From a bacterium (GTDB lineage Bacteria; UBA8248): a DNA stretch of 64,000 bases. Location of the stretch: the NCBI GenBank assembly GCA_965213625.1, contig CBDBZU010000004.1:3488001-3552000 (forward strand), in the 5' to 3' direction. Position 1 is the stretch's first letter, and the number at the start of each line of letters is the position of its first letter. Positions 36,236 through 52,954 of the stretch are shown here, piece by piece. The translations under genes were made by a program, and so were the position numbers. The notes under the pieces were generated by a model. It did no database searches, had not been told where the DNA came from, and was given only the letters and a program-made list of their open reading frames with translations.

Positions 36236-37684
36236 GAGCTTCTTGCAAAAACCTCAAGGAGGATTGTGAGATATTGCGCAGGAGGCCAAGTGGGCTTGAG
36301 GAACGCAGCATGTGTTTGGAGAATTGGGCGTTTCGCGGTGAGCGGTAGGAGCGGAGGCCAGAGAACAGGCGAACCGGGTTCGTCCGGGCAGGCTTCATCG
36401 CGCCGCTCAGGCTATGTGACGGGATGCGAGGTCGTTCCATGGGGCCGGTGCGGGTTCAGAGCGTCAGGCGCATGAGCTGATCGAGGGTGAGGGCGAGGAC
36501 GCCGAACATCAGGTGGCAGAAGACCTTCTCATGGCCCCGCACGCGGACGTGGCGCCCGCCATAGGAATCCTTGATTCGGCTGTTCACACGTTCGACTGTG
36601 GAGCGTTCGTTGTAGCGCACTCTTCGGGGGTCGCTGTATCCGGCGCAGCGCCGGGCGCGAGCCTCCCTGGCACGTTCCTTCTTACGCTCCTTGTCCCGGT
36701 GGGTGTTGACGTCGATGATCGGAACATGACCTGAGAGGTAGCTGTGCCGGCCGATCTCTTTGCTGTCGCAGGCCGCATCCATCAGTTCATAGAGGTATGT
36801 CACCCGTTCCGTGCTCAGGGTCGCTAGGGGGATGGCCGCCTGGCTGTCATGCAAGGAGGCCGAGGTCAACAGGCAGCTGATGGGGACCCCGGAGTCGGCG
36901 GCGTCCACATGCAGCTTGTAACCCCTCCAGGTCTCAAGAAAACCCTTCGCGTTTTTCCTCACGCCAACCGTCGGGGCCGTCGGCAACTCATCCAGCATCG
37001 TGTCGCGGTCCATGCGCAACTGCCGCTGCAGCCGGCTCGGCCGTTTCGCCTTCTCGTCTTTGGGTTCGGGCTTCTCACGAGCGTCAATAGCGGTCGAATC
37101 GCGTGAGATGTGACCGACAATCGTCTCCTCAAACGCCGCCTTGACCACGGCCTCGTGCATCCGCTCGGGCAGCCTGCTCCGCGCGAACTCTCCAAAGGCG
37201 CGCGAAAACGTCGATTCGCTCGGTATCTCGCCCACACGCGACCAGCCACACAGACGCCGCAGCACAGGGTCACACGCGACGCGGTCCATCAAGTCCCGCG
37301 TGGTCGGAAAGTCCCATACGGCCTTGGCGATGAACGCGCGCGCCAGCGCCCCACGGTCTTCTGCCGGACGACCGCTCCCGCCGCTACGCACACCGACGAA
37401 GCCCTCCACCGCAACCACGTCGAGAACGGCTACCAGCCGCCTGTGCTTCGTTTGCAGTTCGCCGACCTCTTCGGCCAGCCTGGGAAACAATCCACCTTGA
37501 AACCGCTTCCAGATGTCGGTTAAACTCGATACCAAGGACATGGGGCGTTCCCTCCGCTTCAGGATGTTGTAGGGCTCATAACCACAACATAGCAGGGAAC
37601 GCCCCCTTGTCCACTTGAATCCCTCCAACCTTCACTCAACCTCGAAACTTATCCCCTGCTCCAATGGGGTTTTGCAAAAGGCCC
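36236..37684 (-). mobile_element. IS5/IS1182-like insertion sequence, copy 1
   Basis: Imperfect terminal IRs GAGCTTCTTGCAAAAACC (36236) and reverse complement GGGCCTTTTGCAAAACCCC (37684); near-identical copy at 53041-57355. Confidence 0.9.
36456..37541 (-). CDS. DDE transposase (IS5/IS1182-like)
   Basis: PSESTFSRAF, RDSTAI, GYKLH, MDAACD (copy 2 has DAAYD), RSTVERVNSRIK; GGAGG SD before ATG 37541. Confidence 0.9.
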   Translation of the reverse strand: MSLVSSLTDIWKRFQGGLFPRLAEEVGELQTKHRRLVAVLDVVAVEGFVGVRSGGSGRPAEDRGALARAFIAKAVWDFPTTRDLMDRVACDPVLRRLCGWSRVGEIPSESTFSRAFGEFARSRLPERMHEAVVKAAFEETIVGHISRDSTAIDAREKPEPKDEKAKRPSRLQRQLRMDRDTMLDELPTAPTVGVRKNAKGFLETWRGYKLHVDAADSGVPISCLLTSASLHDSQAAIPLATLSTERVTYLYELMDAACDSKEIGRHSYLSGHVPIIDVNTHRDKERKKERAREARARRCAGYSDPRRVRYNERSTVERVNSRIKDSYGGRHVRVRGHEKVFCHLMFGVLALTLDQLMRLTL

Positions 37685-37830: not shown

Positions 37831-38082
37831 ATGAGAAGCGGCGATGAAATGTTGAAGCAGATTGTAGATAAGTCCGCCCTGGACGCGGATTTCAGGCAAC
37901 AGTTGCTCGCAGACCCGAAGTCGACCATCAGTCAGGAATTGGGTATTACGATCCCCGATTCGATGAATATCATGGTCCATGAGAGCGACATGCAGACGGT
38001 GCATCTGGCGTTGCCCCCTGATCCGAATATCACCGAGGAGCAACTCGAAGCCATCTCGGCCGGTCTCTGCTGCTGCTGGTAA
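37831..38082 (+). CDS. srpE: NHLP (proteusin) RiPP precursor, core LCCCW
   Basis: Nitrile-hydratase-like leader (DADFRQQLLADPK, VHE...HLALPP), cleavage motif ITEEQLEAISAG, core LCCCW as recalled for the sponge-microbiome srp precursor. Confidence 0.92.
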   Translation: MRSGDEMLKQIVDKSALDADFRQQLLADPKSTISQELGITIPDSMNIMVHESDMQTVHLALPPDPNITEEQLEAISAGLCCCW

Positions 38083-38140
38083 ACCCGACAGCCCGAGATT
38101 AGCGGGGTCAAAGACGCGGAACAATTTGGACCCGCATAGT

Positions 38141-38190
38141 GCAAACAAAAACAACTCCTCGTCCCTACCGGGGCGAGGGTTTGTTTATGC
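38141..38190. terminator. Hairpin between convergent genes, possible bidirectional terminator
   Basis: A-rich run, CTCGTCCC-TACC-GGGGCGAG stem, then GGTTTGTTT. Confidence 0.45.
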
Positions 38191-38205
38191 CCGCTTGAGA
38201 CCGGA

Positions 38206-39324
38206 TTATGTGGAGACCGCTCCGGAAAGCACCATGTAAACATAGGCCTTGGCTTGCCTGAGCCGATTTCCGGAAATGACCAGTTTTATGTGGTGAATGC
38301 CGCGCAACATGAGAAACTGCCCGGTCCTGGCGAACAGAGTCGTCGGTTTCGAAACCCAATCGGCAAGCGCCTCAATCTTTTCCGGAACGACAAAGTCCTC
38401 ATGGCTCAGGGCGTCGAGAAAGGGGTCCCAATCGGTCAGGCCGTCGAGCCAGTAACGTGAATCTTTCGTATATCTCTGCTTGACGATGAGCGTCAGGCCG
38501 AGCGTCGGACCGACACCGTCCGCCTGCACGTCAACATTCGCTCCGGTTCTCACAATATCCGCGCGTTCCTTGAAGCGTGAAATCAAAGCGTCTACGGCCG
38601 AGAGCCGACCCGGCCAGCCAATGTTCTCGAGATAGGAACAAATATCCCCCTGTGATTTGAAGCCCATGATCGCCAGGCGGATTGTGCGTTCGCGAGAGGG
38701 GAATATCCCGAAAGAATCCAGGCGCGTGTCTTCCGGCTGCGCCAGGTAAACCCGTTCGGCGTTTTTCCGTTCAGCGGCTATCTTTTCCCAGCCGACGCAG
38801 GAAACGAGGGCGTCAACCACGACTCCGACATCGGTCTGGAGGCCGTCGCCACCGGATAACGTGCGTTCGTTGGGCCGCAGGAACATTCCCGGCAGCGAAT
38901 CTTTACTTCCCGGCGCCGAATCTATGTCATATTCCAGCATCAATTTACGTCCCACAATCTCTCGCAGAGGCGAGTCCTGGGCTTCCATTTCCCTGAACAG
39001 CCGCCTGACCGCTCTCGCAGTTTTATCCGCCTCGTCGGTCCGCGCCCGCTCCTCGAAAAAATCGCCTGACCGGTTTCCGCTCGCCAGCGAGACGCCGAAA
39101 TCCGCCGCCGGCCGACTGTCATGCAGAGGCAGTTCGAAGCCGAACGGCTGGGCGCCCATGGTAATGGGAAGTCGGCTCGCACGTTCCAGTATGCGCCCCC
39201 ACTCCCGCTCTCCGATAAGAGTCGGAGAAATTCTGCTTCGAAATTGCCCGAGCAATTCAGCCATGGTGCCGCCTTCTTGGACGAGGCGGTCCTGGGTAAG
39301 CGCGACTGCTTCGTCGATATCCAT
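38206..39324 (-). CDS. Uncharacterised RiPP-cluster protein, possibly prenyltransferase-fold
   Basis: AAGGAGG SD, 9 nt after the YcaO stop; motifs FGFELPL..ADFG, LEYD, HHIKL..AKAY. The fold is inferred. Confidence 0.6.
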   Translation of the reverse strand: MDIDEAVALTQDRLVQEGGTMAELLGQFRSRISPTLIGEREWGRILERASRLPITMGAQPFGFELPLHDSRPAADFGVSLASGNRSGDFFEERARTDEADKTARAVRRLFREMEAQDSPLREIVGRKLMLEYDIDSAPGSKDSLPGMFLRPNERTLSGGDGLQTDVGVVVDALVSCVGWEKIAAERKNAERVYLAQPEDTRLDSFGIFPSRERTIRLAIMGFKSQGDICSYLENIGWPGRLSAVDALISRFKERADIVRTGANVDVQADGVGPTLGLTLIVKQRYTKDSRYWLDGLTDWDPFLDALSHEDFVVPEKIEALADWVSKPTTLFARTGQFLMLRGIHHIKLVISGNRLRQAKAYVYMVLSGAVST

Positions 39325-39333
39325 ATTGCCTCC

Positions 39334-41688
39334 TTACGCGATCACGGGTGCGGGATTCAAATCGGCTTCGGCCAGGGAGCGCTTCAGGCGGCCCATGCCG
39401 ACAGGAACGTCGTACAGGCGCCCGGGCGCGAATCTTGGCCAAAAATGACGCATGCCCGGTACGATGACCCGCGCAACCGGCATACCGATGTCCGGCCGGG
39501 TCTGGTCCAGCACGAGGAACTCCATGCCCCTGGCTTCCACCAACGATCGGCAATGTTCCACATCCTCAAGCGTGTCCGCGGATTCGATCACCGGATACTG
39601 TGAGCCTTGCTTGAGCGGCGCGTCCGGCGCCGACGCCAGCCAGGAACAATCGGCGATTCGAGCTGTCTTCCACCACGTGAGCGCCAAGGGATCGTCGATC
39701 ATCGGCCGGCCGTCGCCCCTTCCGGGACGCGGCAGCCAGGTAAGACATTGGTTCAACTCGCAAATCGCGCGCAGGGCCGCCAGTCGCGGGTCGGCATGAG
39801 CGCCTGCGCCGTATATGATGTCCTCGGTTTCCGCGTCCGGTCTGCGCGAGAGCGCAACGAACGAAGGGATACCAATGTCGGAAGTAACGTCGAGCATCCA
39901 CACTTCCCGCTCGTAGCGACCATAATAATCCGCGGCCGATGCCAGGAATTCATCATCAAAACTGGAGAGATCGACCCCGGGCGCTCTCAGCCCGTTATAC
40001 CACCAGATGGCGAACGCATCGCGCTCGACCAGTTCATAGAAGCCTTGCAGGATGGCCTCCTCCAGGATGTTCCCTGCGGCGCAGCCGTTCGAGTCGGCAA
40101 TCAGTTCGGCATCTCCGCGCTGTTCGGCAGACATGCTGTAGAGCATCGACGTCGGCAGATAGCGATGCCGCCGCTGCGTGAACGACCACACGGGCGTCCA
40201 GTCGATTGCGGCATCGGGCTCGAGACGCGGCGGGACGATGTTGTACGGGTGGCCTTTCGCGTTGATCCTCTCCGCGTCGTCAAGCTGACCCTCGCTGAAA
40301 AGCTGCGCATCGTTGGGATGGATAGCCTCGTCTTCTGCGGCGAAGTCGACGAATCGCTTGCGGATGCGTATCTCGTCTCCGCAATATGCGCCCGAATAAC
40401 GCTCTAGCGCCTCGCATAGGGCGCTGGCCTCGGATTGTTCCCGCGTGCTGCCCTTGCCGGCGCTCTTGCTGCGCAGGCTGCGCCTGAGCGAACTCAGGCT
40501 CCGGCTTCTCGTGGCGGGATTGCTTCCGGCCCAATAGACGTGCAGCCAGGAATCGCTCTCGTCGGTAGTGCGCGTCAGCCAGGTGACGACCCCGCTGATC
40601 GGGCTCACCAAGTGGCGGTATTTCGTCAGGGTGGCTTCCGGCGTCACGGCCCGCGCACCACCGCTGTTGCGATGGGTTTTGGGACTCGATTTCAGGCGCA
40701 GCGGCGCAGGCTGCCGGTCCGGCCGGTACAACGCCTCGTCGCCACAGGCCGGGCACTGCGGGCGGCGCGTCACTGCGTGCTGCGAACTTGTGAACGAGCC
40801 GAGGTTCATCGCTATTGCCCTCTCGTGAATCGGGGCCGCCTCTTCCAGCACCAGCCATTTGACGATTTCGGCCGCTATCAGCCCGTACAAGGCTTCGAGC
40901 GCCGTCGGCTCCGCCGCAAACGGCTTGAAGGCGGCTTCCTCTCCGGCAACGCTACGCAGGAAATTGTGGACCTCCTTATGACTGCGCAGGCGGTGAACCA
41001 GACATTCCCAGCAGGGTCCTTGTCTATCCGCGCGGAAGACGGGGCCGAACAGCGCCTCCATGCCGTGCGGCCGCACCAGCGTCCACGGCGCTCTCGCCTC
41101 GAGGCGGCGCCGATTCACGTCTTCAAACCGTGCTTCGAGATAATCGTCGCAGACGATAACGGTGAGCCGTGGATCGCAGGCCGCCACACAGACGCCGCTC
41201 TCTTCCAGATGCCGGACGAGGCGGCCGTCGTCACCTTCGACCGCGATGCGCGATTCCGCCAGCCGCCCTTCGACCCAGCGGGGCGATGCGCCGAGCGAGG
41301 TCCAATAGGCCGCACGAGGTCGGTCCATGCCATGATCGGCGGAGACGACGTAGCCCCTGTCGGAGAGTGAAACAACCGCCGCATGAACGTTAGCGGCGGC
41401 ATGGCGGCCATCGAGGGCGGCGACAATCCCGGCAAGCGGGCGCCGGTCGCCCAGAAGCGGTAGCAGGTCGCAATACAGGCCGCCGTGCAGCAGGGTATCG
41501 AACGACTCGGAAACCAGCAGCGTCTGCTGCTCGTCAATTTCGTGGAACTGCAGGTGCGGGGTAAGCGCGGGGAACTCGACGAGGCCTTCGTCCGCTGGGG
41601 TCGTTTTCGTCAATATCCCGCGTCTTGGATTCATTTTCGTCTGCGACGTCTTGCGGGAATTCCGCGTCTGCTCAATCGGCGCCTTCAT
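39334..41688 (-). CDS. srpC: Fused E1-like/YcaO cyclodehydratase (TOMM type)
   Basis: ATGA overlap with the upstream stop; GP.F...GPCWECL, RRPQCPAC, SAGKG, CEALERYS, DSNGCAAG, ELVERDA, Pro-rich C-terminus PAPVIA. Confidence 0.92.
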   Translation of the reverse strand: MKAPIEQTRNSRKTSQTKMNPRRGILTKTTPADEGLVEFPALTPHLQFHEIDEQQTLLVSESFDTLLHGGLYCDLLPLLGDRRPLAGIVAALDGRHAAANVHAAVVSLSDRGYVVSADHGMDRPRAAYWTSLGASPRWVEGRLAESRIAVEGDDGRLVRHLEESGVCVAACDPRLTVIVCDDYLEARFEDVNRRRLEARAPWTLVRPHGMEALFGPVFRADRQGPCWECLVHRLRSHKEVHNFLRSVAGEEAAFKPFAAEPTALEALYGLIAAEIVKWLVLEEAAPIHERAIAMNLGSFTSSQHAVTRRPQCPACGDEALYRPDRQPAPLRLKSSPKTHRNSGGARAVTPEATLTKYRHLVSPISGVVTWLTRTTDESDSWLHVYWAGSNPATRSRSLSSLRRSLRSKSAGKGSTREQSEASALCEALERYSGAYCGDEIRIRKRFVDFAAEDEAIHPNDAQLFSEGQLDDAERINAKGHPYNIVPPRLEPDAAIDWTPVWSFTQRRHRYLPTSMLYSMSAEQRGDAELIADSNGCAAGNILEEAILQGFYELVERDAFAIWWYNGLRAPGVDLSSFDDEFLASAADYYGRYEREVWMLDVTSDIGIPSFVALSRRPDAETEDIIYGAGAHADPRLAALRAICELNQCLTWLPRPGRGDGRPMIDDPLALTWWKTARIADCSWLASAPDAPLKQGSQYPVIESADTLEDVEHCRSLVEARGMEFLVLDQTRPDIGMPVARVIVPGMRHFWPRFAPGRLYDVPVGMGRLKRSLAEADLNPAPVIA

Positions 41689-44081
41689 GCACGCGAAACG
41701 AGCGTATCGATGCGGGCGGCGGCGCTGGATGCGGTTTCGGCGACCGCCGACGCCAGCGCATCGAAATCCTCCTGACCGCAAGCGTTCGCAACAAGAGATT
41801 TGACCTTCGGCCCTGCCGCCGTCGCGTCGAACCCTTCCTCGCCGACAAGGCGCATGACGCCCTGTAAATCCCGCCACATGGCCGCGGCTTGCGCCAGCGG
41901 CTCGGCGCCTGCGGCTTCGAACACCGCCGCGGCGGTCGGCGCCGGATCGTCGAAGTCGCTTCCGGCGCGCACCAACTGCAGGTAACGCGCGACCTTCTCG
42001 ACATCGTTCAGCCCGCCGCGCATCCGGGCGTATGCGGACACGCCTGTTTCGGCAGGGTCTTCCGTCCGCTCGCTCAACCGGGCGAGCAAAGACTCGTTCG
42101 CCCTGCATTCGGCCAGTACCCGGCGCCGCGCCTCATCGAAGCGACCTTCGATATCGGAACCGCCATACTCGAACACGCAACGCGCCCTGGTGAGGGCGGG
42201 CACTTCGCCTGAAGTCGAATCTCCATAATGTTCGGCCAGTTCGGAAAGCGGCAACTCAAGAATGGAATTCGAGCCGGGCGGGACCGGAGAGAACAACAGG
42301 CTGTCCTGCGCCAGGTCGGTCAGGGCATCTCGGAAACTTTGGCACACTTGTTCGTTTTTGCCGGACCGCAGACCGTCATGGACGAGCAGCATATCGATTC
42401 CAACACCGGGATAAGCTTCCCGGCTGGCCAGATCGCCCAGGAAAACGGCAGCGACTCCACCCACACTCAGCATTCCGAACCGGTCGACATAATCCGCGAC
42501 CACGGAGGCGAGCACGGTCGCAACCGATGCTTCGGCGAGATTCGACAGCGCCGTTCTCGCTTCCGCTGGCAACAGGTTTCCGCGCATCACGTGCATACCG
42601 ATCTGAAACGCCTTGTCGTTCGACCAGTTTCGCACGATTTCAGCGGTCTCCCTCGCATCGGCCACCGGCAGTTCGGCGACCAGACCCTTCAATTCCTGAA
42701 CGTCCATTTCGTAAGTCCAGTAGACTCTCGCAAGCCCGCGCCGCGCAATCGATTCGTATTCATCATCCGGCCCGAACCCCTTCGGCAGGTCGAGGTCGAG
42801 GAATTCCTGGTCTTGCAGGTTGTCCAGAAGTTCCGGGTTCCGCTCAACCCGTTTGGCAAGCCTCGGGGCGGCGCCGAAGATTTCGAGTATCGCGTCAAAG
42901 GCGTCGGGCCGCGCCGCGGCAATCGGGCTGTCGTAGGGGCCCCAGTCGTCAACCTCCGGATAGAAATGTTCGCGCCATTGGTCCACCAGCGGGTCCATCT
43001 TCTCGAACCAGCGCTTGGGCCGCAGCACGATGTTCATCATGTCGGCGTAGGTTCCCGGCAACTCCGGCGACTCATCGAGGCCGCTGACCTGCAGCAGCGG
43101 ATACTGGCGCGACGCCACCGCATGATGATCCGCATGGCGCTGCATATTGAAAAACATCCAGTTGCTGAACTTCCAGTCCGCGCTCCAGGAATGGCGCGGC
43201 ATCGCCTTTTCCCAGCGACCGTTGTCCAGACGGACCCGGCGCAGGCCGTAGTGTTGAAAGTAGTTGCTCATCTTCATCGAAAAGACGCAGGACAGACCGA
43301 GGAAGACGAAGACGGGAACGGCCCAGATCCCGCCCATCCAGTAAACCAGTCCGTACCAGAACGCGACGCCGACGACGTAGCGCCAGAACGGATTGTCGTA
43401 ATGCCACACGGGCAAACGCCGCCGCGCCAAGCGTTCTCTTGCGACTTCCCAGGAATGGACGAGGTTGCTGACAACTTCCTTGGGTAGATATCTCCAGAAA
43501 CTTTCCCCCTTCGGAGCGGACCCGACGTCATACGGCGTGCCGACCAGGGCATGGTGAATATAGACGTGCTCCGTGGCGTATTGCGGATAGGAGACGGTGG
43601 CGAGCAGGAATTCGCCCACCCGGCGTTCCCAGGTCGTGCGCCGGTGAATCATTTCGTGGCCGACTACGAATACGGCTTGCGCTTCCATCGTCAGGATGAT
43701 CGCCAGGAGCACGCCTTCCCAGATGGAGAATTGATCCGCCGCCAGGATTTGCCACATACCGAAAATGAGCGTCGGCGGCCACAGAAACGACCACGACCAG
43801 ACCGGCAGATTGTGCCAGAACAGGCGGTGCTCCGACGTATTCGCCGGGTCCATGTTTTGTCCGTCCCGACCCAGCACCTTATCAAGCGACCCCGCAACAC
43901 TCATAAAAACGAGCGGCGGCAGCAACCACCAGCCTCCATTGTACGCGCCGAGAAGAATCAGCGGAAAAACGACCAATGGCAGATAATGCGGAAGAGCGGT
44001 CAGAATGGACGGCTCGATACGCTGAACGGCTTCGGCGTCGCCTAGACCGGAGCCACCACTTGCTACGGGACTTTGTGGCAT
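41685..44081 (-). CDS. AlkB-like membrane di-iron monooxygenase/desaturase fused to a degenerate GlnE-like nucleotidyltransferase domain
   Basis: His boxes HEMIH, EHVYIHH, NYFQHYG, QRHADHH with TM helices; C-terminal LGDLASRE...IDMLLVHD, LTRARC, RGGLNDVE..ARYLQL. Confidence 0.8.
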   Translation of the reverse strand: MPQSPVASGGSGLGDAEAVQRIEPSILTALPHYLPLVVFPLILLGAYNGGWWLLPPLVFMSVAGSLDKVLGRDGQNMDPANTSEHRLFWHNLPVWSWSFLWPPTLIFGMWQILAADQFSIWEGVLLAIILTMEAQAVFVVGHEMIHRRTTWERRVGEFLLATVSYPQYATEHVYIHHALVGTPYDVGSAPKGESFWRYLPKEVVSNLVHSWEVARERLARRRLPVWHYDNPFWRYVVGVAFWYGLVYWMGGIWAVPVFVFLGLSCVFSMKMSNYFQHYGLRRVRLDNGRWEKAMPRHSWSADWKFSNWMFFNMQRHADHHAVASRQYPLLQVSGLDESPELPGTYADMMNIVLRPKRWFEKMDPLVDQWREHFYPEVDDWGPYDSPIAAARPDAFDAILEIFGAAPRLAKRVERNPELLDNLQDQEFLDLDLPKGFGPDDEYESIARRGLARVYWTYEMDVQELKGLVAELPVADARETAEIVRNWSNDKAFQIGMHVMRGNLLPAEARTALSNLAEASVATVLASVVADYVDRFGMLSVGGVAAVFLGDLASREAYPGVGIDMLLVHDGLRSGKNEQVCQSFRDALTDLAQDSLLFSPVPPGSNSILELPLSELAEHYGDSTSGEVPALTRARCVFEYGGSDIEGRFDEARRRVLAECRANESLLARLSERTEDPAETGVSAYARMRGGLNDVEKVARYLQLVRAGSDFDDPAPTAAAVFEAAGAEPLAQAAAMWRDLQGVMRLVGEEGFDATAAGPKVKSLVANACGQEDFDALASAVAETASSAAARIDTLVSRA

Positions 44082-44163
44082 GTCAGCTCCTTTACAGTAA
44101 ACAGATTTGAACCCTCAGGCCGGACGATATTTTATCCCCGAATACCTGAACCTGCAAGGAATT

Positions 44164-45465
44164 TCAGGTCCGCAAGATTGCGAGGAGACGTTCGAGAGCT
44201 TCGATACAAAACGCCGTGGTCACGGATTCTGAGCCATGTCCTATCCGCCCTACCGTACCCCACTTCAACGTTTGGTCGCCAAACGCGAGAAGCTCCGGCC
44301 AGCTACCGTCCTCACGCTGCGAACCCGTGAACCTCTCCACCTCGCGTTTCGCGTCGACGCCGTCGAGGCGTCCAACATGATGGAGCGCCGAGACGGCCTG
44401 AGCCGTTTGGAGGATGTTGCCGAATTCCCCTTCCTCGTCCCGCAAGCCCAGGATGCGCTCCGCTAGTATCGGGCGCAGCCGGTCGAGAGCGGGCCGTGCG
44501 CGAATCATGGCGCGGGCGGTCGCATAGCAGATCGCGACCTCGTCGGGATACCATTTCGACGATCCCTCGAGATTGCCTTCGGTTATCAAGGCTTCCAGCC
44601 ACCTTTGGGCATCCCTGGTTTCTGGACAGTCGCCGAGATAGGCAATGACGTTCGCATTGACTACAGGGTCGGCTTCGATACGAAAGCGCGATACCACATC
44701 GGGTTCGTCGTCTTCGAGAACCCAGGTCATGAAGCGGCCTTCCTCGTCGCGATTCGCCAGTATCTGCGGAACGTTCCTCCCCAGTAAAATCCAGAGGTGG
44801 CCTCCAATCACGAGTGAACACAGTGCGGTGCTGTCGAGATCCTGGGGCAGGTGGCGATAATAGCGCCACAATCCGGGATATTCGATAGTGTCGACGAGAT
44901 ACGCCCTTGTCGCAGCGCATATGGCCCTGGCGCGCGCTTCCTCGCAACATTCGAGAGCCAGGGCGCAGAAAGCCGAAATAAAGGGAGGTCTTTCGAAATG
45001 CCTCGGTATATCCGGATCGCCCAAGTTGAACCGGATACAATGCCAGGCTCCGTTCTCGTCTATCGTGGATTCCAGGAAACCAAGACCGCGGCGGATGCTT
45101 TCTCCACCCGCTTTCGCCAGCGCCCCGGTGGTCGCGGCGTTCTTCGGGGTTCTCTCCCCTTGAAGTTTTGGCGGACGAAGGGGCGGCGCGGGGTCGTGCA
45201 TCGTTTTGCGAAGAAACTCGAGCGATTCCGCGCCGGTTTTCGCCTCCTCCCGTTCGGCCTCGGTGAATTTGCTGCGCGGCGGAAGGACGAGGTGCGTCGT
45301 GGTATAGGTTTCTTCGTGTACGTGAATCTCATGGTCTTCGGCCATCGACACGCCAAATTCCGCTTCGATGGTCTCTTTGGGCTTGGCGAGAAGACGTTCC
45401 CGGAATTCGTAGTCGCCGCCAGCTCGCGATATGAGGGAATCAACCAGGCCAAAAGGCTTCTTCAT
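44164..45465 (-). CDS. NHLP leader-like domain fused to a prenyltransferase/squalene-cyclase-type alpha-alpha barrel
   Basis: N-terminal DYEFRERLLAKPK...VHEE...HLVLPP; QW-like repeats DENGAW, RDEEGRF, RDEEGEF, QREDGSW; DLDST motif. Confidence 0.75.
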   Translation of the reverse strand: MKKPFGLVDSLISRAGGDYEFRERLLAKPKETIEAEFGVSMAEDHEIHVHEETYTTTHLVLPPRSKFTEAEREEAKTGAESLEFLRKTMHDPAPPLRPPKLQGERTPKNAATTGALAKAGGESIRRGLGFLESTIDENGAWHCIRFNLGDPDIPRHFERPPFISAFCALALECCEEARARAICAATRAYLVDTIEYPGLWRYYRHLPQDLDSTALCSLVIGGHLWILLGRNVPQILANRDEEGRFMTWVLEDDEPDVVSRFRIEADPVVNANVIAYLGDCPETRDAQRWLEALITEGNLEGSSKWYPDEVAICYATARAMIRARPALDRLRPILAERILGLRDEEGEFGNILQTAQAVSALHHVGRLDGVDAKREVERFTGSQREDGSWPELLAFGDQTLKWGTVGRIGHGSESVTTAFCIEALERLLAILRT

Positions 45466-45540
45466 CGATATCTACTCCATATTCGCGGGCCTTGGCCGAA
45501 CATGCATTTTTTCCGCCGAGTTATCGTCTCCATATTCGGA

Positions 45541-48483
45541 TCAAGCGATTTGCCTTTTTATCAATTCCTTGAATACCCCGTCCACCTCCTTGAGTTCGCT
45601 GAAGGAACCGCTTTGTACGACTTTCCCGGCTTGCAGCACGTAGATGCGGTCGGCCTGTTCCAGCGTGGACAGGCGGTGGGCAATGACGAGGCGGGTGGAA
45701 GTCAGGGCGGCAAGGTTTTGCATTATCTTGGCCTGGCTTTCGTTATCCAGCCAGTTCGTCGCCTCGTCCAGCAACATGATTCGCGGGCTGCCGATCACCG
45801 AGCGGGCGATGGTGATGCGCTGGCTCTCGCCGCCCGACAGGACAGACCCGCTGGTGCCCACCATGGTCATCATGCCCATGGGCATGTCCTTGATTTGGGC
45901 TTCAACTTCGGCGGTACGGACCGCCGACCATACTTCATCGATCGTCACCGCATCATGGTGACTGACCAGATTGTCCCAGAGATCCTGTGGATGGAGCCCG
46001 ACGGATTGCGGCACAGCGCCAATTTTCTTGCGCACCTGTTTCAGATTCAGGTGCTTCAGGTCGCGGCCGTCGTAATACACCGCGCCGGCGGCCGGCAAGT
46101 CGATACCGAGCGCGAGGCGGAACAGGGTGCTCTTCCCTGCGCCGGACTCACCGGCAATCGCGACGAATTCGCCGGGACGGGCGTGAATCGAGACGTCGTC
46201 GAGAATCAACGGACCGTCGGGATCGTAGCGGAATGAAATGCGGTCGAACAGTATTTCACCGCCCAGGTATTCAACCGGCTCTCCTTCCGTCACGGTTTCA
46301 GGGACTGCGGAGAGCAGCGGACGCATCTGCTGGAACGCCGGACGCATGGCGGCAATTGCGCCGAAGGACTCGCCGAGCCGGGCGATGGCGGACTGGAAAA
46401 CGATAAAGACCGTGTAAACGACGAGAAAATCGCCGACCGGAATGTTTCGGTCTTCGACCGCCACCACCGAAAAAAGCAGCACCCCGCCGGCAAGAAAAGG
46501 GAGCGCGGCGCCGAATGCGCGCGAATGTCCCTCGAGCGCGCCCAGTTCTATCTCCGCGCGCTTCTGCTCACGATAGCCCCTCGCCCAGATGGCGTAAGCC
46601 GACCCTTCCGCATTATCCATTCGCAGCTTGGAGATGCCCCCCACGATCTGGAACAGTCGGCCGGCTACGCGACGCGCTGCGCTGAGCATCCGCCCATAAG
46701 GTGAAATCTGGCGCCACCCGAGGACTACGGTGACCAGCAGGGAAGCCAGGCTGAAGACGAGGGTGATGACGCCGAGGATGGCGTCGTACAAAAAAATGAC
46801 GCCAAAAACCGGAATCAGAAATATAATCGACAGAAAGCTGTTGGCGACGACTCCCTGCAAGCCATCGCGAAGATTCTGGAATGTCATTCCCGACATGGCC
46901 AGGTCGCCGGATGGATGGCGGTGCAGAATGCTTGGCGGAAGGCGCATGAGACGGTCCCAGAAGGCGGCTTCGAGCCGAGATGCCGAGCGCCCCTCGAGCC
47001 GCATCATCGCCGTGCTTTGAAGCAGGTGCAGCAGCGCGCCGAGAAGGCCGAACGCCGCTAACGCCACGGCAACGGTATAGAGCGTTCCTATGCTTCCGCC
47101 CGCCAATATCTGATTCGCAACGAACCCGAGCGCGAGCGCCGGCAGCAGATTGAGCAGACCGTATGGAAGCCCGGAAATCACCAGCCGCGCCAAATCCGAA
47201 GCCGACCCGTTCAGCGCGATTCCCAGCAGGTCCGCCGGTTTCACGTCCCTCGAGGGCAATGGCCGATAGAACATCCACGCCTTCTCCCCCAGCGCATCCG
47301 CGCGGTCCGCCGTTACCCGGACACTGCGTTTGCTGACCGGGTCGATTTCACGGTATCGCCCGAACATTCCCGGCAGCAGCGCCACGGGCCGGCCGTCCTC
47401 GGCGCGAAACGCCAACATCGCGTTGCTGTCGCCGCGCCACCAGCCGCCCTCGGCATTGAATCGCACACGCCGGGCGCGTACGCCCGACGCATCGAGAACC
47501 TCGACGAGGCCGACCGGAGAACCGGAAAGCCCCGAGCGCGCCGGTATCTTGAAATCGATTCCTTCATGGCGGCCGATGTGTTGCAAGGCATCCGCCAGCG
47601 CCGTGTCCTCGATACCGGCATCCCGGTCAATCGGAAGGTCATAGATATTGAAGAGCCGCTGCCGCGCGGCTTTTTCGGCCGTGCGGCGGCTGGTTGTCCG
47701 CGCGCGTTCGAGATTGACGTCATCGACCACGACCAGTCGGCGGTTCAGGCGTTCCAGGGAGAAAGCAACCGCGTGAAACGAGGCGAGCGCCGGCAGCAGC
47801 ATACCTTCCTCCGCCAGTGTCTCGGTAGATTTGCCCGTCAGCGTCGCCTCGTCGAACAAGGTGAGCCAGCTTGTGCGCGTCAGCGGAACGAGAGCCTCGT
47901 GTGAGCCGCTCGCCTCCGCAATTTCCGCCGAGTCGATAATACCCATGAACAGGCTCGCGCCGAGCGGCGGTTCGGATACCCATACAACACCGCGCCGTAC
48001 GGATAGCGTACATGGAGCCGGGGTCTGCGTCAGACCGGGTTCGGCCAGCGCGGTCGGACGCGGAAGGGGGCTTGCAAAACGCGAGAGTGTTTCCGTAATG
48101 GCGATCAGCCAGGTATCGGCCTGTTCCGCCAATTCCGATGGGTGAACCTGGGACAGCAAAGAAGCCGGCAGACGTCTCAATTTGGTGCCCGGCAGTCCTT
48201 TGGCGATAATACGGAGCGTATTGTCCTCGCCATTGTCCCGTTGGTCCGGCGCCACGCCCGGCAGCAACCAGCCCGATTCCCGGCGCAGCAGATGCTGCGG
48301 CGCCGCCTGCTCCACCCCGTCTTTGAATTCGACCAGGAACAGATTAACGGCGCCCTGTTCGATGAACCAGACGCTGTCCGGGTCGTCGAGCTTGGCCGGC
48401 AGGTTGCCGGCGCAGGGAACGGACGCGCCGAAGCGAGCGGCGAGTTCGGCGATTGACGTGTATTCCGGCTTTGAATGCTGCAT
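45541..48483 (-). CDS. NHLP bacteriocin-system ABC transporter permease/ATPase with N-terminal cNMP-binding-like domain
   Basis: VWFIEQGAVNLF N-domain, TM domain, GESGAGKST, LSGGESQR, LLDEAT. Confidence 0.9.
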   Translation of the reverse strand: MQHSKPEYTSIAELAARFGASVPCAGNLPAKLDDPDSVWFIEQGAVNLFLVEFKDGVEQAAPQHLLRRESGWLLPGVAPDQRDNGEDNTLRIIAKGLPGTKLRRLPASLLSQVHPSELAEQADTWLIAITETLSRFASPLPRPTALAEPGLTQTPAPCTLSVRRGVVWVSEPPLGASLFMGIIDSAEIAEASGSHEALVPLTRTSWLTLFDEATLTGKSTETLAEEGMLLPALASFHAVAFSLERLNRRLVVVDDVNLERARTTSRRTAEKAARQRLFNIYDLPIDRDAGIEDTALADALQHIGRHEGIDFKIPARSGLSGSPVGLVEVLDASGVRARRVRFNAEGGWWRGDSNAMLAFRAEDGRPVALLPGMFGRYREIDPVSKRSVRVTADRADALGEKAWMFYRPLPSRDVKPADLLGIALNGSASDLARLVISGLPYGLLNLLPALALGFVANQILAGGSIGTLYTVAVALAAFGLLGALLHLLQSTAMMRLEGRSASRLEAAFWDRLMRLPPSILHRHPSGDLAMSGMTFQNLRDGLQGVVANSFLSIIFLIPVFGVIFLYDAILGVITLVFSLASLLVTVVLGWRQISPYGRMLSAARRVAGRLFQIVGGISKLRMDNAEGSAYAIWARGYREQKRAEIELGALEGHSRAFGAALPFLAGGVLLFSVVAVEDRNIPVGDFLVVYTVFIVFQSAIARLGESFGAIAAMRPAFQQMRPLLSAVPETVTEGEPVEYLGGEILFDRISFRYDPDGPLILDDVSIHARPGEFVAIAGESGAGKSTLFRLALGIDLPAAGAVYYDGRDLKHLNLKQVRKKIGAVPQSVGLHPQDLWDNLVSHHDAVTIDEVWSAVRTAEVEAQIKDMPMGMMTMVGTSGSVLSGGESQRITIARSVIGSPRIMLLDEATNWLDNESQAKIMQNLAALTSTRLVIAHRLSTLEQADRIYVLQAGKVVQSGSFSELKEVDGVFKELIKRQIA

Positions 48484-50693
48484 CAGCCCGACATGACTTG
48501 CTTGTAATAGGCGCCATCCCGATCCGCGAACAACTCGTCGTGCGTGCCGCGTTGCACCGTGACGCCCTTGTCGAGCACGATGATTTCATCGCAATCCCGC
48601 ACGGTGCTCAGCCGGTGCGCCACGATCAGGCAGGTGACGCCGCGACGCCGCAGGGCGTCATCGACATCTTCTTCCGTTGCCGCATCGAGTGCGCTGGTGG
48701 CCTCGTCCAGAATGAGCACCGTCGGATTGCCCACCAACGCACGGGCGATTTCCAGACGTTGCCGCTGGCCGCCGCTGAAATTCGCCCCGCCTTCTTCGAC
48801 GAGGGTCGAATATCCCTGTGCTCTATGCAGGATTTCGTCATGGATCCGGGCATCTCGCGTTGCGGCGAAGAGGACCTCATCCGGAACGGCCGGGTTCCAC
48901 AGCGTGATATTGTCGCGCAGGGACGCAGAGAAGAGCACGACCTCCTGATCCACCATGGATATGGACTGCCGCAGCACTTCCTCCGGAATCTGATTCCGCA
49001 GGTGTCCATCGAAAAGGATTTCGCCCGACCAGGGCTGGTAGACGCCCGAAACCAGGCGCGCCAGGGTCGACTTGCCGGAACCGCTTGGACCGACCACGGC
49101 GACGCGCTGCCCCGGATTGATCACGAGGTTGAAGTCCCTTATCAAAGGAGGCCTGCTTTTGTTGAAACCGAATGTGACGTCTCGCAGTTCGAGCTGGCCT
49201 GCAAGCTGGAGCCGGCCGTTGAACGTGGGGATTGACTCCGATTCCGGGTTCCTGCGGCTGAAGACGGGATCCTCATCGGTGCTGGAGATGTCCTCGAATC
49301 GCTGCATATCGGTTTCGAGCGCCTGACGGGTTTCGGCGAATTCCAAAAAACGCCGGATGGGAGCCAGAAACATCTCCGCCAGGATATAGAACCCGACCAG
49401 CGTCCCCAGCGTCATGTCTCCGGTCATGACGAAACCGCCCCCGATGCCGAGAATCGCCGCGCTTCGGAGCGCGTCGATCAGACCCGGAAGCGAGGTATTG
49501 ACGGAGCCCAGTTCGGAGTAGAGTTGGCGCGCACGCAGTTCACGCGCCTGTTGACCGCTCCAGCGCGAAAAAAACCGGTCATCCGCACCCGTCATACGCA
49601 GATTGTCCGCATGACTCAACATCTGCATGCCGAGGCCAATCAGCAATCCCTGTTCACGCCTCATCGCCTGACTGCGCACCGCCCGTAGGGCGTTGAGAAA
49701 GTGGGCCAGCACTCCGTGCAGCAGGGCCAGAAAAAGCACGATCAGCGTGAGCAGGATATCGTAGGCGAACATCGCTACGAGCAACACCGCGCTCATCGCC
49801 ATATCGATAATGAGCACAAGAAACTGATCCGCCAGATTCCTGGCGATTCTGTCGGTGGACGAGACCCTATCGGTCAGATCCCCCGCCAGCCTGTGCTCAA
49901 AAAACTCCACCGGCAACCGCAGCAGCCGTGACATGCCGCGACTGTAGCCGACCACCGATACCCGGACTGCGAGCCGCTTGAGGAAGCGGTGCTTGAGCAA
50001 GGACAGGACGTATACCAGGACGCCGCCGCCAAGCAAGGCAATCACCAACCCGCCCCAGGACCCGTGTTTTTCCAGAACATCGTCGACGAAAACACCGAGA
50101 GATACGGGAATTATCAGCGTCAACAACGTTAACATGAGTCCGCAGGCGATCACCCCGGTAAGCAAACTCCATGATCCGGGGAGCAAGGCGCCCAATTGCC
50201 TGAACAAGTCGGGCCGCTCGCCCCCGGGACTGAAATCGGCGCCGCGCTTGAAGCGAAGCGCAATTCCGCTGTAGTCCTTGTTGAACTCTTCGGCGGAAAT
50301 CCTGCGCCGGCCCGTGGATGGGTCGTTGAGATAGAAATAACGGCCATCGAAACCTTCGAGGACGACGAAATGGCTGAATTGCCAGAACAAAATCAAAGGC
50401 AACTCCAGCATTTTCAGTTGATCGGCGAGTAAGCTGAACCCGCTGCATTCGAGACCATAGTGTCTCGAGGCGCGCAAGATGCTTGCGGCGCTGCTGCCGT
50501 CCCGGCTCACCTCGCATTTTTCGCGCAATTCGGTAAGCGACACCCACCGCCCGAAATAGGCCAGTATGATGCCGAGACAGGCGGCGCCACATTCCGACGC
50601 ATGCATCTGCAACAGAATCGGCGTGGTCACCTTCCGTTTCGATACGTCCGAAGAGGCCTTGTCCCCGGCGTCTTTGGAAGCGGCCGTCGGCAT
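48483..50693 (-). CDS. NHLP-family C39 peptidase/ABC transporter
   Basis: LQMHASECGAACL, HFVVLEG, NDP; GPSGSGKST, FSGGQRQR, ILDEAT. Confidence 0.93.
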   Translation of the reverse strand: MPTAASKDAGDKASSDVSKRKVTTPILLQMHASECGAACLGIILAYFGRWVSLTELREKCEVSRDGSSAASILRASRHYGLECSGFSLLADQLKMLELPLILFWQFSHFVVLEGFDGRYFYLNDPSTGRRRISAEEFNKDYSGIALRFKRGADFSPGGERPDLFRQLGALLPGSWSLLTGVIACGLMLTLLTLIIPVSLGVFVDDVLEKHGSWGGLVIALLGGGVLVYVLSLLKHRFLKRLAVRVSVVGYSRGMSRLLRLPVEFFEHRLAGDLTDRVSSTDRIARNLADQFLVLIIDMAMSAVLLVAMFAYDILLTLIVLFLALLHGVLAHFLNALRAVRSQAMRREQGLLIGLGMQMLSHADNLRMTGADDRFFSRWSGQQARELRARQLYSELGSVNTSLPGLIDALRSAAILGIGGGFVMTGDMTLGTLVGFYILAEMFLAPIRRFLEFAETRQALETDMQRFEDISSTDEDPVFSRRNPESESIPTFNGRLQLAGQLELRDVTFGFNKSRPPLIRDFNLVINPGQRVAVVGPSGSGKSTLARLVSGVYQPWSGEILFDGHLRNQIPEEVLRQSISMVDQEVVLFSASLRDNITLWNPAVPDEVLFAATRDARIHDEILHRAQGYSTLVEEGGANFSGGQRQRLEIARALVGNPTVLILDEATSALDAATEEDVDDALRRRGVTCLIVAHRLSTVRDCDEIIVLDKGVTVQRGTHDELFADRDGAYYKQVMSG

Positions 50694-50694
50694 C

Positions 50695-51246
50695 TTATGA
50701 TCGCCTCATTCGAAACAGCGCGATCGGAGATTGCCTGCCAAGCTCGAAGACAATCCGGCATTTCCCGCCCGCCAGGGAATTCAAATCCATACCTTCTTCG
50801 AGCGCGATATCGATGCGGCGCACGGACATCGGCGCCTTGGACTCAAGCGCCGCCAGCCCCCCGGAGAAGGGCACGGCGGAAATCGCCCTGACCTTTCCGA
50901 CAAGCGCGCCTGTTTTTCCATCGGCCGCATGCGGCTCGATCACCACCGGCATCCCGGCCTCGATATGTGAAGCGATATCGCTCTCGACCCAGACGAGGGC
51001 CCGTACGGACCGGCCGCCCCCGATCGGGTTTTCGCCTTGCTCGACCACTACGCCGTCCACCGCGAAACTACGAGCGACGCTGCCGAAGAAAAGCCATACC
51101 GAGAGGATGCACACCAAGAGAGCGATTGCGGCGACAATCAGACGCTCCCGAGGCGTTGAAATCGTCAGCAACCGGTCAAGTTGCTCGCGTTCTTCCTTTG
51201 CTTCGGCGACAATATTATGAAAAGAATCGAATGGATTATTGAACAC
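50695..51246 (-). CDS. Short NHLP-system secretion (HlyD-like) protein
   Basis: EQLDRLLTISTPR followed by a TM helix and WLFFGSV; GMPVVI...GKVRAIS; C-terminal SPIAL; GTG start. Confidence 0.72.
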   Translation of the reverse strand: MFNNPFDSFHNIVAEAKEEREQLDRLLTISTPRERLIVAAIALLVCILSVWLFFGSVARSFAVDGVVVEQGENPIGGGRSVRALVWVESDIASHIEAGMPVVIEPHAADGKTGALVGKVRAISAVPFSGGLAALESKAPMSVRRIDIALEEGMDLNSLAGGKCRIVFELGRQSPIALFRMRRS

Positions 51247-51664: not shown

Positions 51665-52954
51665 TTACGAACCCGGCGCCTGACAGCCCAGCCCCTGGGA
51701 CATCTGGGCGTAACTGGTGAGCGGAAGCGCGCACATCCGCTCCCAGTCCGATTTGTCGATGACCGTCTGGTTTATCAGTTCGAGCATTTCGTCGAATTTA
51801 CGAAGCGCGTCGCAACCCACCACATCGGGGTCCGCCGCCTTGCGGTGTCGAGGCCAGGCTTTGTCTCTCGCATGGCGCCAGAATCTGCTGTCGTACCTGG
51901 AGCCGCAGGAATAGTGCCAACCGACGAACAGGCTGTAGCACAGCACGTTGTTGATGAGGAACCGATTGACCGCCGGCGCGTCGCGCTCGCGGTGTTCTAT
52001 CGGCCGGTTGAGACGCATATAGAGAACCGTCCCGACCTGCAACTGGGCGGACACGATCGCCGTTGCTTCGAGCGGCTCGATGAAGCTTGCCGCGTTGCCG
52101 ACGCGGGCCACCACGCCATCGTATATCCGGCGGTGGACGAAATTGGGAAACGGAATGACGGCGCGTTGCTCGAATTCCGATACGCCGTCGGTTTCGAGGA
52201 AAGCGTCGAAGTCCGATTCCACTTCCTCGAGGCCGGAAATGTCGCGGTTGAAGATGTACCCGTAGGAGGTATGTGATGCAAGCGGAATAACGAATATCCA
52301 ACCGTACGGACGCGCAACCGCCCGGGTATAGGTGTGTTGGAGAACCAGCCCGTCCCGCTCTTCTTCGACGGTTGCCGGACAGCGGCGGATGACGGCCGTA
52401 TTGGTGGGGATGAAGGAAACATCGATGTGCATTTCGGGGTCGAGTTCTGCGGGAAAGCCCCGGGCATCAAAGACCAAATCGTAGCGCTCCGCCGGCAGGC
52501 CCTCGAATTCCACTCGCGCGCCATCCTCCACCCTCGTGATACTAGTTACTTTCGCGTCGATGCGGCGCGCGCGGTTGCTTTCGCGAAGCAGGTCCGTGAG
52601 CAAGTCGACGGACAGATGGTAGGCATAGGACACCTGCTGCGGCGTGAAATAGTGGGTGAAGTCCTGATTGTGCCGGCCCCATCCCTCGAATGCGACACCA
52701 TACTTGCGCGTTCCTTTCAGGCGCCGCTGGACGGTTTCATGGGGCAAACGGGTCAGTTTGCGCAAATCCTGCACGAGGCTCGGCCAACTGCCTTCGCCCA
52801 CGCCGATGACGGGAATGCGCGAGTCATAGATGTGGTGCAGCTCGTGGTCGCTCTCGGGTAGAAGACGAGTCACATTGGCGGCCGCAAGGGACCCTGCGGT
52901 TCCTTGCCCGAGGACCGCGATTTTCCGTAAAGATTCTGCGCCCGGCTGTATCAT
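51665..52954 (-). CDS. srpI: Flavin-dependent tryptophan-halogenase-family enzyme (peptidyl brominase-like)
   Basis: GQGTAG FAD motif, IGVGEG, TRKYGVAFEGW (catalytic Lys region), GWIFVIPL, FIEPLEAT; clustered with a Trp-terminated precursor. Confidence 0.88.
   Translation of the reverse strand: MIQPGAESLRKIAVLGQGTAGSLAAANVTRLLPESDHELHHIYDSRIPVIGVGEGSWPSLVQDLRKLTRLPHETVQRRLKGTRKYGVAFEGWGRHNQDFTHYFTPQQVSYAYHLSVDLLTDLLRESNRARRIDAKVTSITRVEDGARVEFEGLPAERYDLVFDARGFPAELDPEMHIDVSFIPTNTAVIRRCPATVEEERDGLVLQHTYTRAVARPYGWIFVIPLASHTSYGYIFNRDISGLEEVESDFDAFLETDGVSEFEQRAVIPFPNFVHRRIYDGVVARVGNAASFIEPLEATAIVSAQLQVGTVLYMRLNRPIEHRERDAPAVNRFLINNVLCYSLFVGWHYSCGSRYDSRFWRHARDKAWPRHRKAADPDVVGCDALRKFDEMLELINQTVIDKSDWERMCALPLTSYAQMSQGLGCQAPGS

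Follow-up and report, generated by a model that had tools for sequence, protein, structure and literature searches.

The stretch of DNA considered here, referred to as the window, comprises 64,000 nucleotides of a UBA8248 bacterium (assembly GCA_965213625.1, contig CBDBZU010000004.1, positions 3,488,001 to 3,552,000 of the forward strand), and the gene of interest, at positions 44164..45465 of it, joins a domain resembling the NHLP leader of peptide precursors to a domain of the class II terpene-cyclase type. The locus is the published srp cluster, named for a sponge-derived proteusin among the peptides that are made by ribosomes and modified after translation (RiPPs), with the SrpE core LCCCW, the YcaO protein SrpC, and the brominase SrpI. 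A first-pass annotation, made from the letters alone, had placed an open reading frame (ORF) at these positions, and this is borne out with one correction, namely that the frame lies on the minus strand: the ATG is located at 45465 with a GGAG 10 nt upstream, the product is 433 amino acids (aa) long, and a plus-strand reading of the same interval is closed by many stops.

From its N-terminus, the protein consists of an NHLP-like domain, a conserved segment, a variable linker, and a toroid, all encoded on the minus strand. Residues 1–78 (45232..45465), with the C-terminal end EREEAKTG, form the NHLP-leader-like domain, as judged by TIGR03793, NHase_alpha, and identity to SrpE; an invariant Gly is then followed by the conserved segment (A/E)SLEFLRKTMHDPAPP at residues 79–96 (45178..45231), the variable linker at residues 97–118 (45112..45177), and a single alpha/alpha toroid of the class II terpene-cyclase beta type at residues 119–433 plus the stop codon (44164..45111), the latter assigned by PDB profile search and Foldseek. 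Within the toroid, translation and alignments place DLDST, residues 209–213 (44827..44841), at the DxDD general-acid motif. Mean conservation across 51 orthologs and the window protein amounts to 0.80 for the NHLP part, 0.87 for the following segment, 0.58 for the linker, and 0.87 for the toroid; the post-Gly segment, SLEFLRKT.hDPAPP, is thus conserved at least as well as the rest of the protein, and S81, F84, L85, and P92-P94 are invariant in 46 sequences. The Pro-rich linker described in the first-pass annotation is present as MHDPAPPLRPPK at residues 89–100, and residues 91–100 are modeled with a predicted local distance difference test (pLDDT) score of 88 by AlphaFold2 (AF2). The strongly conserved stretch from ERE...TG into the post-Gly segment may serve to pack against the toroid, to bind a partner, or as a site of processing.

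The parallel between the N-terminus and the precursor leader, which was the starting point of the earlier proposal of an enzyme carrying its own NHLP leader, is supported by several lines of evidence. The NHLP leader model TIGR03793 matches residues 9–70 with E = 1.4e-11 and 44.0 bits, and a second scoring of the fusion protein gives 47.6 bits, both of which are under the curated cut-off of 50.9 bits, while Pfam NHase_alpha is matched with 27.7 bits, narrowly over its gathering score of 27.2 bits. In a BLASTP comparison with the precursor of the same cluster (37831..38082, plus strand), 26 of 72 residues are identical (36%) without gaps (E = 2e-16), and the strings pointed out in the annotation (FRERLLAKPK and FRQQLLADPK; VHE...HLVLPP and VHE...HLALPP; FTEAEREEAKTG-A and ITEEQLEAISAG-L) are all found. 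In a comparison of 62 precursors with 66 fusion proteins, all taken from related loci, SrpE and the fusion have the same majority residue in 26 of 76 ungapped columns, including FR..LL..P, VHE, H, and LPP, the residues that define the fold of NHLP leaders. Helices are predicted by AF2 at residues 4–17, 19–27, and 29–37 with pLDDT 82–87, followed by low confidence at residues 50–80, which fits the published picture of a proteusin leader whose nucleus is structured and whose C-terminal half is looser (PMC10858898, PMC12455567). By sequence, the N-terminal domain is therefore taken as homologous to the NHLP leader family, yet it is not a member of that family by the curated rule.

The joining of the two domains is not peculiar to this genome. 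Related loci were collected as the best 80 of 165 stretches encoding a relative in species-representative genomes; the proteins are 70–91% identical and come from metagenome-assembled genomes (MAGs) of sponge symbionts in about 10 phyla, the taxa including Nitrospirales, Nitrospinota, Gemmatimonadota, Alpha-/Gammaproteobacteria, Acidobacteria/Vicinamibacteria/Bryobacterales, Latescibacterota, Binatia, and Thermodesulfobacteriota. In every one of the 80 loci, a single stop-free match extends across both domains, and among the matches listed from a collection of 5.8 billion proteins, 120 of 120 homologs are 432–503 aa long, with a coverage of 99–100% and an identity of 75–100%. Even four divergent copies from Rhodobacteraceae/Paracoccaceae MAGs, 52–60% identical to the window protein, retain the same architecture together with EREAARTG and DLDST, and the sole intact precursor ORF beside them carries the core LCCCW. 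The first-pass annotation had allowed that homologs might be two separate genes, with a stop codon lost here, and had called for a survey of the fusion; such split genes were sought in the 80 loci and are absent, so that a lost stop codon does not account for the fusion. An artefact of this kind, or a misassembly joining a precursor gene to an enzyme gene, is scarcely credible, given that the 80 loci stem from independent assemblies in one stop-free frame, that the linker and post-Gly segment are conserved in length and sequence, and that no close stand-alone toroid (>58% identity) occurs among 1.84 billion cluster representatives, the nearest being 46% identical. In this gene, an NHLP-leader-like domain and a domain of the class II terpene-cyclase type are thus naturally fused.

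The leader-like domain can be further distinguished from a genuine precursor leader by its C-terminal end. Counting backwards from the cleavage position in 62 SrpE leaders and 73 fusion proteins, position -12 is I/M/L in SrpE and F/L/Y in 69 of the 73 fusions, position -7 is L/M in 62/62 SrpE leaders as against Arg in 73/73 fusions, position -4 is I/V in 62/62 as against Ala in 73/73, and position -2 is Ala in 62/62 as against Thr in 62/73, whereas Gly at position -1 is common to both (62/62 and 73/73). The second Leu of the L(X)4L motif is accordingly replaced by Arg in the fusions, and the TIGR03793 match ends at model position 69-70 of 77, short of the cleavage-site motif. A hydrophobic residue at -4 belongs, with L(X)4L, to the leader features tied to recognition by C39/LahT, SrpI, and YcaO proteins. 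Among the features of a family leader, that is, a Gly-Gly-type motif, L(X)4L, a hydrophobic -4 residue, and a short core, the fusions keep Gly -1 alone, and a folded protein of 355 aa follows in place of the core.

These elements differ in the partners that they serve. As far as the accessible portions of the sources describe, the halogenase SrpI requires both Leu residues of L(X)4L and nothing of the structured nucleus (PMC10858898), LahT-type C39 domains bind L(X)4L (PMC10858898, PMC12715784), and the peptide prenyltransferase MppC, as well as LanM enzymes, grip the structured nucleus of the long leader (PMC12715784); the YcaO protein MprC requires L(X)4L together with a single face of helix alpha1 (PMC12455567). 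Judged from these alignments, the NHLP-like domain keeps a folded nucleus without the L(X)4L and cleavage-site features and is probably not a substrate leader. Since the nucleus is kept and the element used by SrpI, C39, and in part YcaO is lost, a docking or scaffold role exerted through the nucleus would be favored, and the same divergence argues against a leader of the substrate type that is cleaved or exported.

The first-pass annotation had offered a second role for the leader, in which the enzyme is routed through the C39 transporter for cleavage and co-export; in its full form, the C39 ABC transporter would cut after Thr-Gly and export the cyclase with the peptide, and cyclization would take place outside the cytoplasm. 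The unbroken conservation of Gly -1 speaks for such a signal, as does the retention of E-R-E-x-A-R/K-T-G even at 52–60% identity, and all 59 loci (of 80) in which ABC2 is matched over more than 50% of its length have the fusion gene immediately downstream of it in the same orientation. On the other hand, the hydrophobic -7 and -4 residues of SrpE have become Arg and Ala throughout the fusions with mostly Thr at -2, the lost L(X)4L is the very motif of LahT-type C39 domains (PMC10858898, PMC12715784, in the text available), the profile match stops before the cleavage motif, a folded toroid of 355 residues, nine of them cysteines, would have to be carried as cargo, and several loci, e.g., L011-L014, have the fusion gene without adjacent transporters. 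Export through the C39 transporter is less likely on these alignments, and the secretion-signal explanation as a whole is considered distinctly improbable; what stands of the earlier interpretation is that a leader-like and a terpene-cyclase-type domain are naturally fused, and the C39 routing is disfavored.

The C-terminal domain can be assigned through its relatives and its predicted fold. Pfam and NCBIfam scans of the toroid return sub-threshold squalene-cyclase matches only; a search of the 1.84 billion cluster representatives, however, yields 1259 relatives at E <= 0.001, many of them stand-alone proteins of 300-340 aa that cover the query from about residue 107 to 430 at 30-46% identity, and some with other fused domains. 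A profile built from 73 of the 1259 toroid relatives matches, in the PDB, the drimenol synthase AsDMS over profile positions 32-313, nearly the whole toroid (E = 4.3e-30), followed by squalene-hopene cyclase (SHC; E = 3e-26), AstC (E = 3e-20), the monodomain cyclases 8paj/8pak (E = 4e-19), 6ij1 (E = 3e-15), and MstE (E = 1e-5). In the AF2 model of the protein (pLDDT 87.0; predicted TM-score, pTM, 0.80), the C-terminal 315 residues form one alpha/alpha toroid, for which Foldseek again gives AsDMS as the top match (E = 1.2e-11, TM 0.57 over 323 columns), then 6ij1, MstE, and 8pak; all of the listed matches to rank 34 are class II cyclases, i.e., AsDMS, 6ij1, MstE, 8pak/8paj, SsDMS, and SHC. Other toroid families (LanC-like proteins, protein-prenyltransferase beta-subunits, and complement-TED domains) were considered as candidates and rejected: RabGGTase and C3/C3d appear only from Foldseek rank 47 with E ~1e-3, and no LanC entry is found among the Foldseek matches listed for the toroid.

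The motif of the toroid conforms to this assignment. The class II cyclases carry QW motifs of the form Q-x3-G-x-W. One canonical copy is present (Q383-W389) along with degenerate copies at 135, 194, 239, and 342, which, together with the single toroid of the model, substantiates the QW-repeat barrel read from the letters, and the middle Asp, the alpha/alpha toroid fold, and the QW motifs expected of a class II beta domain are all found. The placement of DLDS at the DxDD position likewise holds, both in the column of the 73-sequence family alignment, which reads D-x-D-D-T in most stand-alone relatives, and in the profile alignment, where D211 falls on the general acid D323 of AsDMS and S212 on T324. 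All 61 stand-alone relatives have Asp at the place of D211, and 50 of them also have it at position 212, where the fusion group has Ser; DLDS[T/S/A] is present in 80/80 related loci. In the available text on AsDMS, the DXDD motif is described as 'occasionally variable' with the middle Asp alone strictly conserved, the DXDT of AsDMS has D323 as its general acid, and DxDT is an active variant of DxDD (PMC12232559). Moreover, D209, D211, W200, F245, W248, D266, N272, Y306, R318, Q383, and W389, near-invariant across the 73 family members, are all kept in the fusion. With the motif and every near-invariant family residue retained, the domain looks catalytically competent at the level of its sequence.

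Relatives of the toroid occur elsewhere in other combinations. Several (P0188, P0180/P0261, P0189/P0247, P0265, and P0203) are fused to sulfotransferase, cytochrome P450, DUF2332, or GDSL-lipase domains, and a weak Trp_DMAT-like region is seen among them as well. A genomic-context scan with the stand-alone relative P0135 returned zero relatives. The pattern of fusions points to monodomain cyclases of tailoring pathways that together form a broad family without curation.

The competence of the toroid bears on a further explanation for the fused leader, in which the NHLP-like domain is a leader mimic that activates or regulates leader-dependent enzymes (YcaO or a prenyltransferase) on leaderless or late intermediates, or is a decoy tuning the flux, and in which the toroid may bind the product instead of catalyzing. 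Engineered leader-enzyme fusions such as LynD-F and MicD-F, to which the gene would be the counterpart in nature, show constitutive, leader-independent activity in the accessible text (PMC9052802), and the leader nucleus, with its majority residues in common with SrpE, is retained here. Nevertheless, the retained residues, including the general acid, argue for catalysis, the L(X)4L needed by YcaO and SrpI is lost, and family scans do not recognize a leader-binding RiPP recognition element (RRE) in the toroid; a mimic of this kind is thus held to be very unlikely.

The neighboring genes provide the setting in which the enzyme would act. The components by which srp clusters are defined in the available published text, that is, an NHLP precursor with an LCCCW core, a YcaO protein, and a Trp halogenase (PMC10858898, PMC9426513, bioRxiv 10.1101/2023.06.09.544420), are all present in the window. 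The SrpE-type precursor (37831..38082, plus strand; TIGR03793 69.8 bits, over the cut-off) consists of an NHLP leader and the core LCCCW and ends in AG-LCCCW. The remaining genes lie on the minus strand, comprising a 372-aa protein resembling ABBA aromatic prenyltransferases by predicted fold (38206..39324), an SrpC-type E1-like/RRE plus YcaO cyclodehydratase (39334..41640; PF02624 E = 2e-90, TIGR03604, TIGR03882), a fatty-acid-desaturase/AlkB-type membrane di-iron domain joined to a GlnE-like nucleotidyltransferase domain (41685..44081; PF00487 E = 7e-27, PF03710 E = 5.5e-6), and, beyond the fusion gene, ABC2 of an NHLP-type exporter (45541-48483; TIGR03797 664.6 bits), its C39-peptidase ABC1 (48483-50693; TIGR03796 845.5 bits), a short HlyD-like protein (50695-51246; TIGR03794 E = 3e-9), and an SrpI-type flavin-dependent tryptophan halogenase (51665..52954; PF04820 E = 8e-44).

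Most of these genes accompany the fusion across the 80 related loci. Counted as matches with more than 50% coverage, and as minimum numbers given that contig edges cut off many of the loci, the YcaO gene is found in at least 71 of the 80 loci, the 372-aa protein in at least 70, the di-iron/GlnE-like fusion in at least 63, the C39 transporter in at least 60, ABC2 in at least 59, the short HlyD in at least 54, and the halogenase in at least 53; an ORF ending in ...AG-LCCCW is present in 62. The listed YcaO ORF runs to 42108, its first 155 or so residues being an Arg/Gly-rich extension into the end of the upstream gene, and its real start is probably near 41640, since orthologs cover only the part from there, the coverage being 99-100% with the shortened query. 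In some loci, the di-iron/GlnE-like gene is only 48-53% identical and lies on the other strand. The HlyD-like exporter protein has only 183 aa and, of the 421 positions of the TIGR03794 model, matches no more than 6-56; since the same short form occurs at full coverage in the 54 loci counted above, the gene has not been truncated locally.

Several observations concern the genomic surroundings of the cluster. Transposase genes (DDE_Tnp_1, IS1595-type) and a reverse-transcriptase gene bracket it at 36456-37628, 54102-55043, 56293-57135, and 58569-59909, as would fit an island that moves between phyla. The same genome contains a second, partial copy of window positions 37831-48483 (G000:C4:1524947-1534019), with the 3' part of ABC2, the fusion gene, the di-iron gene, the YcaO gene, and the 372-aa gene; its proteins are 100% identical to those of the window, except for the 372-aa protein at 99.7%, and an adjoining precursor variant is 88% identical. 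Either a segmental duplication of recent date or an effect of the assembly underlies this second copy. Far from the cluster copies lie two more SrpE-like precursor genes (C4:21465-21713 and 4117548-4117796), 91.6% identical to that of the window, and a fifth NHLP precursor of the genome is located at C4:1400357.

The 372-aa neighbor (38206..39324) bears on the question of substrate. It belongs to no Pfam or NCBIfam family, and a PDB sequence-profile search with it gives 0 matches at E <= 10; nonetheless, its AF2 model (pLDDT 85.8, pTM 0.86) is matched in the PDB, among the Foldseek matches listed, exclusively by ABBA aromatic prenyltransferases (NphB/Orf2, EpzP, 5-/6-DMATS, IptA, DMATS1, PriB, CloQ, and AmbP1), with E from 1e-5 and TM 0.4-0.56, and its language-model (Atlas) features point to a Trp_DMAT cluster with a value of 0.91. 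An ABBA prenyltransferase-like identity is therefore plausible from the modeled fold, and such a neighbor would provide a plausible substrate for the cyclase. Only a minority of loci, among them L027, L032, and L039, have its gene immediately after the fusion gene. A complex prediction of this protein with the full fusion (both as alignments) gave ipSAE values of 0.00 and 0.01 against a mark of 0.32, in a run without controls, a result that speaks neither way on binding.

A precedent for the combination exists in other ribosomal-peptide pathways: according to the accessible text, NctPC, which consists of an ABBA prenyltransferase and an MstE-like C domain, geranylgeranylates a peptide Trp and then cyclizes the chain, and ChrPC acts likewise (PMC13290415). 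The cluster here also holds a Trp-containing ribosomal precursor, with the core LCCCW. Based on this precedent, the two activities as separate srp genes, the Trp as last residue of the core, and the AlkB-type oxygenase, a sequence of prenylation and cyclization can be proposed. The 372-aa prenyltransferase-like protein would transfer a chain of the farnesyl or geranylgeranyl type to the C-terminal Trp of the SrpE core; the toroid would then cyclize this chain, with Asp211 of DLDST as the general acid that protonates the terminal C=C bond; and the neighboring AlkB-like oxygenase might oxidize the terpene afterwards. The NHLP-like domain would, at the same time, serve the cyclase as its own docking module and bring it into a leader-recognizing biosynthetic assembly or beside the precursor. 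The protein would, in short, be a core accessory enzyme of srp clusters, a class II cyclase of Trp-borne prenyl chains with a leader-like docking module, which together with the 372-aa protein would make up a split version of NctPC/ChrPC, a proposal to which even chances are assigned.

A number of points weigh against this proposal. Ser replaces the third Asp of the motif in the fusions, with a precedent limited to Thr-bearing relatives. The prenyltransferase assignment of the neighbor is a predicted fold with modest TM values and has no sequence match to solved structures. A polyprenyl diphosphate synthase gene is absent from the cluster and its flanks in the window, and the accessible srp literature describes thiazolines and bromotryptophan only, with no prenylation in the text available (PMC10858898, PMC9426513, bioRxiv 10.1101/2023.06.09.544420). 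The stretch E-R-E-x-A-(R/K)-T-G matches or exceeds the remainder of the leader-like domain in conservation, which is what a processing site would show as well. Furthermore, R262 and K304 align near the phosphate-binding R370 and R415 of AsDMS, although the alignment is ambiguous around residue 260, and the substrate could, on this sequence evidence, be a free prenyl diphosphate instead of a prenylated peptide.

The last point leads to an alternative order of steps, in which the toroid, in the manner of drimenyl diphosphate synthases, would cyclize free farnesyl or geranylgeranyl diphosphate (FPP/GGPP) to a cyclic prenyl diphosphate that the prenyltransferase-like protein then transfers to the peptide, or that is used independently of the peptide, and the NHLP-like domain would merely keep the cyclase near the machinery. 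The closest solved relatives by sequence and fold (AsDMS, AstC, and SsDMS) are FPP-cyclizing enzymes; K304 falls on the phosphate-binding R415 of AsDMS and R260-x-R262-I..D resembles R368-x-R370-I-D, for which the roles are given in the available text (PMC12232559); and R262 and K304 are invariant in the fusions and not in the stand-alone relatives. Conversely, the only characterized RiPP cases transfer the chain before cyclizing it, as far as the accessible text goes (PMC13290415), an insertion within residues 249-265 leaves the alignment ambiguous, the two basic residues may alternatively, and could equally well, bind the C-terminal carboxylate of the core Trp, and the need for a leader-like domain is left unexplained. 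Cyclization ahead of transfer is therefore regarded as unlikely.

Prenylation of the core Trp followed by cyclization, the preferred order, can be set against the systems already known, for the srp cluster, the class II monodomain cyclases, and RiPP prenylation-cyclization are not new in themselves. The published srp clusters are alike in the LCCCW precursor with an NHLP leader, the YcaO cyclodehydratase, the Trp halogenase, the three-gene NHLP-type exporter, and the many sponge-symbiont phyla, while their published texts, in the parts available, do not mention the fusion gene, a prenyltransferase, or a cyclase (PMC10858898, PMC9426513, bioRxiv 10.1101/2023.06.09.544420). NctPC and ChrPC are alike in that a class II cyclase of the MstE-like, monodomain kind works, in a ribosomal-peptide pathway, alongside a prenyltransferase directed to Trp (ABBA in NctPC), according to the accessible text (PMC13290415); their P and C domains, however, are one polypeptide, whereas here the prenyltransferase-like protein and the cyclase are encoded by separate genes, the cyclase bears the NHLP-like domain, and the chemistry is predicted. 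AsDMS, AstC, and MstE have in common with the fusion the single alpha/alpha toroid, a DxD(T/S)T-type motif, and the middle Asp as general acid (PMC12232559, available text), at about 19% identity in the Foldseek alignments of these beta-domain-only cyclases with the fusion toroid; the HAD-fused AsDMS and AstC have an N-terminal HAD phosphatase-like domain, in contrast to the NHLP-like N-terminus here, which has no HAD family match. NHLP leaders (TIGR03793) share the fold-defining residues and precede a short core, as opposed to the 355-residue enzyme that follows the divergent, sub-cut-off domain of the fusion with its Arg for the second Leu of L(X)4L, Ala -4, and Thr -2. In LynD-F, MicD-F, and the lanthipeptide synthetase fusions, a leader is likewise joined to the N-terminus of a RiPP-pathway enzyme, as the accessible text reports (PMC9052802), but these are man-made and the leader binds the recognition element of its own enzyme, whereas the present fusion is natural and its enzyme domain has no known leader-binding element.

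A natural cyclase with a degenerate precursor leader, or a terpenoid branch of the srp family, was not found in the searchable literature, although the founding srp paper (Nguyen et al. 2021), the paper on NctPC and ChrPC (Hubrich et al. 2024), and the supplements lay outside the search, so that a prior mention is possible. It is tentatively proposed, with somewhat less than even confidence, that the srp end product is a peptide-terpenoid hybrid, extending beyond a brominated tris-thiazoline pentapeptide, and that the cyclase would be the first natural enzyme to be recruited through a domain that is a degenerate copy of the leader of its substrate.

Sponge symbionts from many phyla carry srp clusters, and few biosynthetic genes in sponges are transcribed as highly as those for the srp precursors, according to the available text (PMC10858898, PMC9426513, bioRxiv 10.1101/2023.06.09.544420). 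From the three conserved genes (prenyltransferase-like, cyclase, and AlkB-like), an srp product that is lipidated and bears a terpene is predicted, and chemists could look for it by a defined mass shift and with a known set of genes. If true, the leader-like domain on the enzyme side would represent a mode of enzyme-substrate or enzyme-enzyme assembly in RiPP biosynthesis that has so far only been engineered, and a natural, enzyme-borne leader-like domain could serve as a portable docking tag in pathway engineering.

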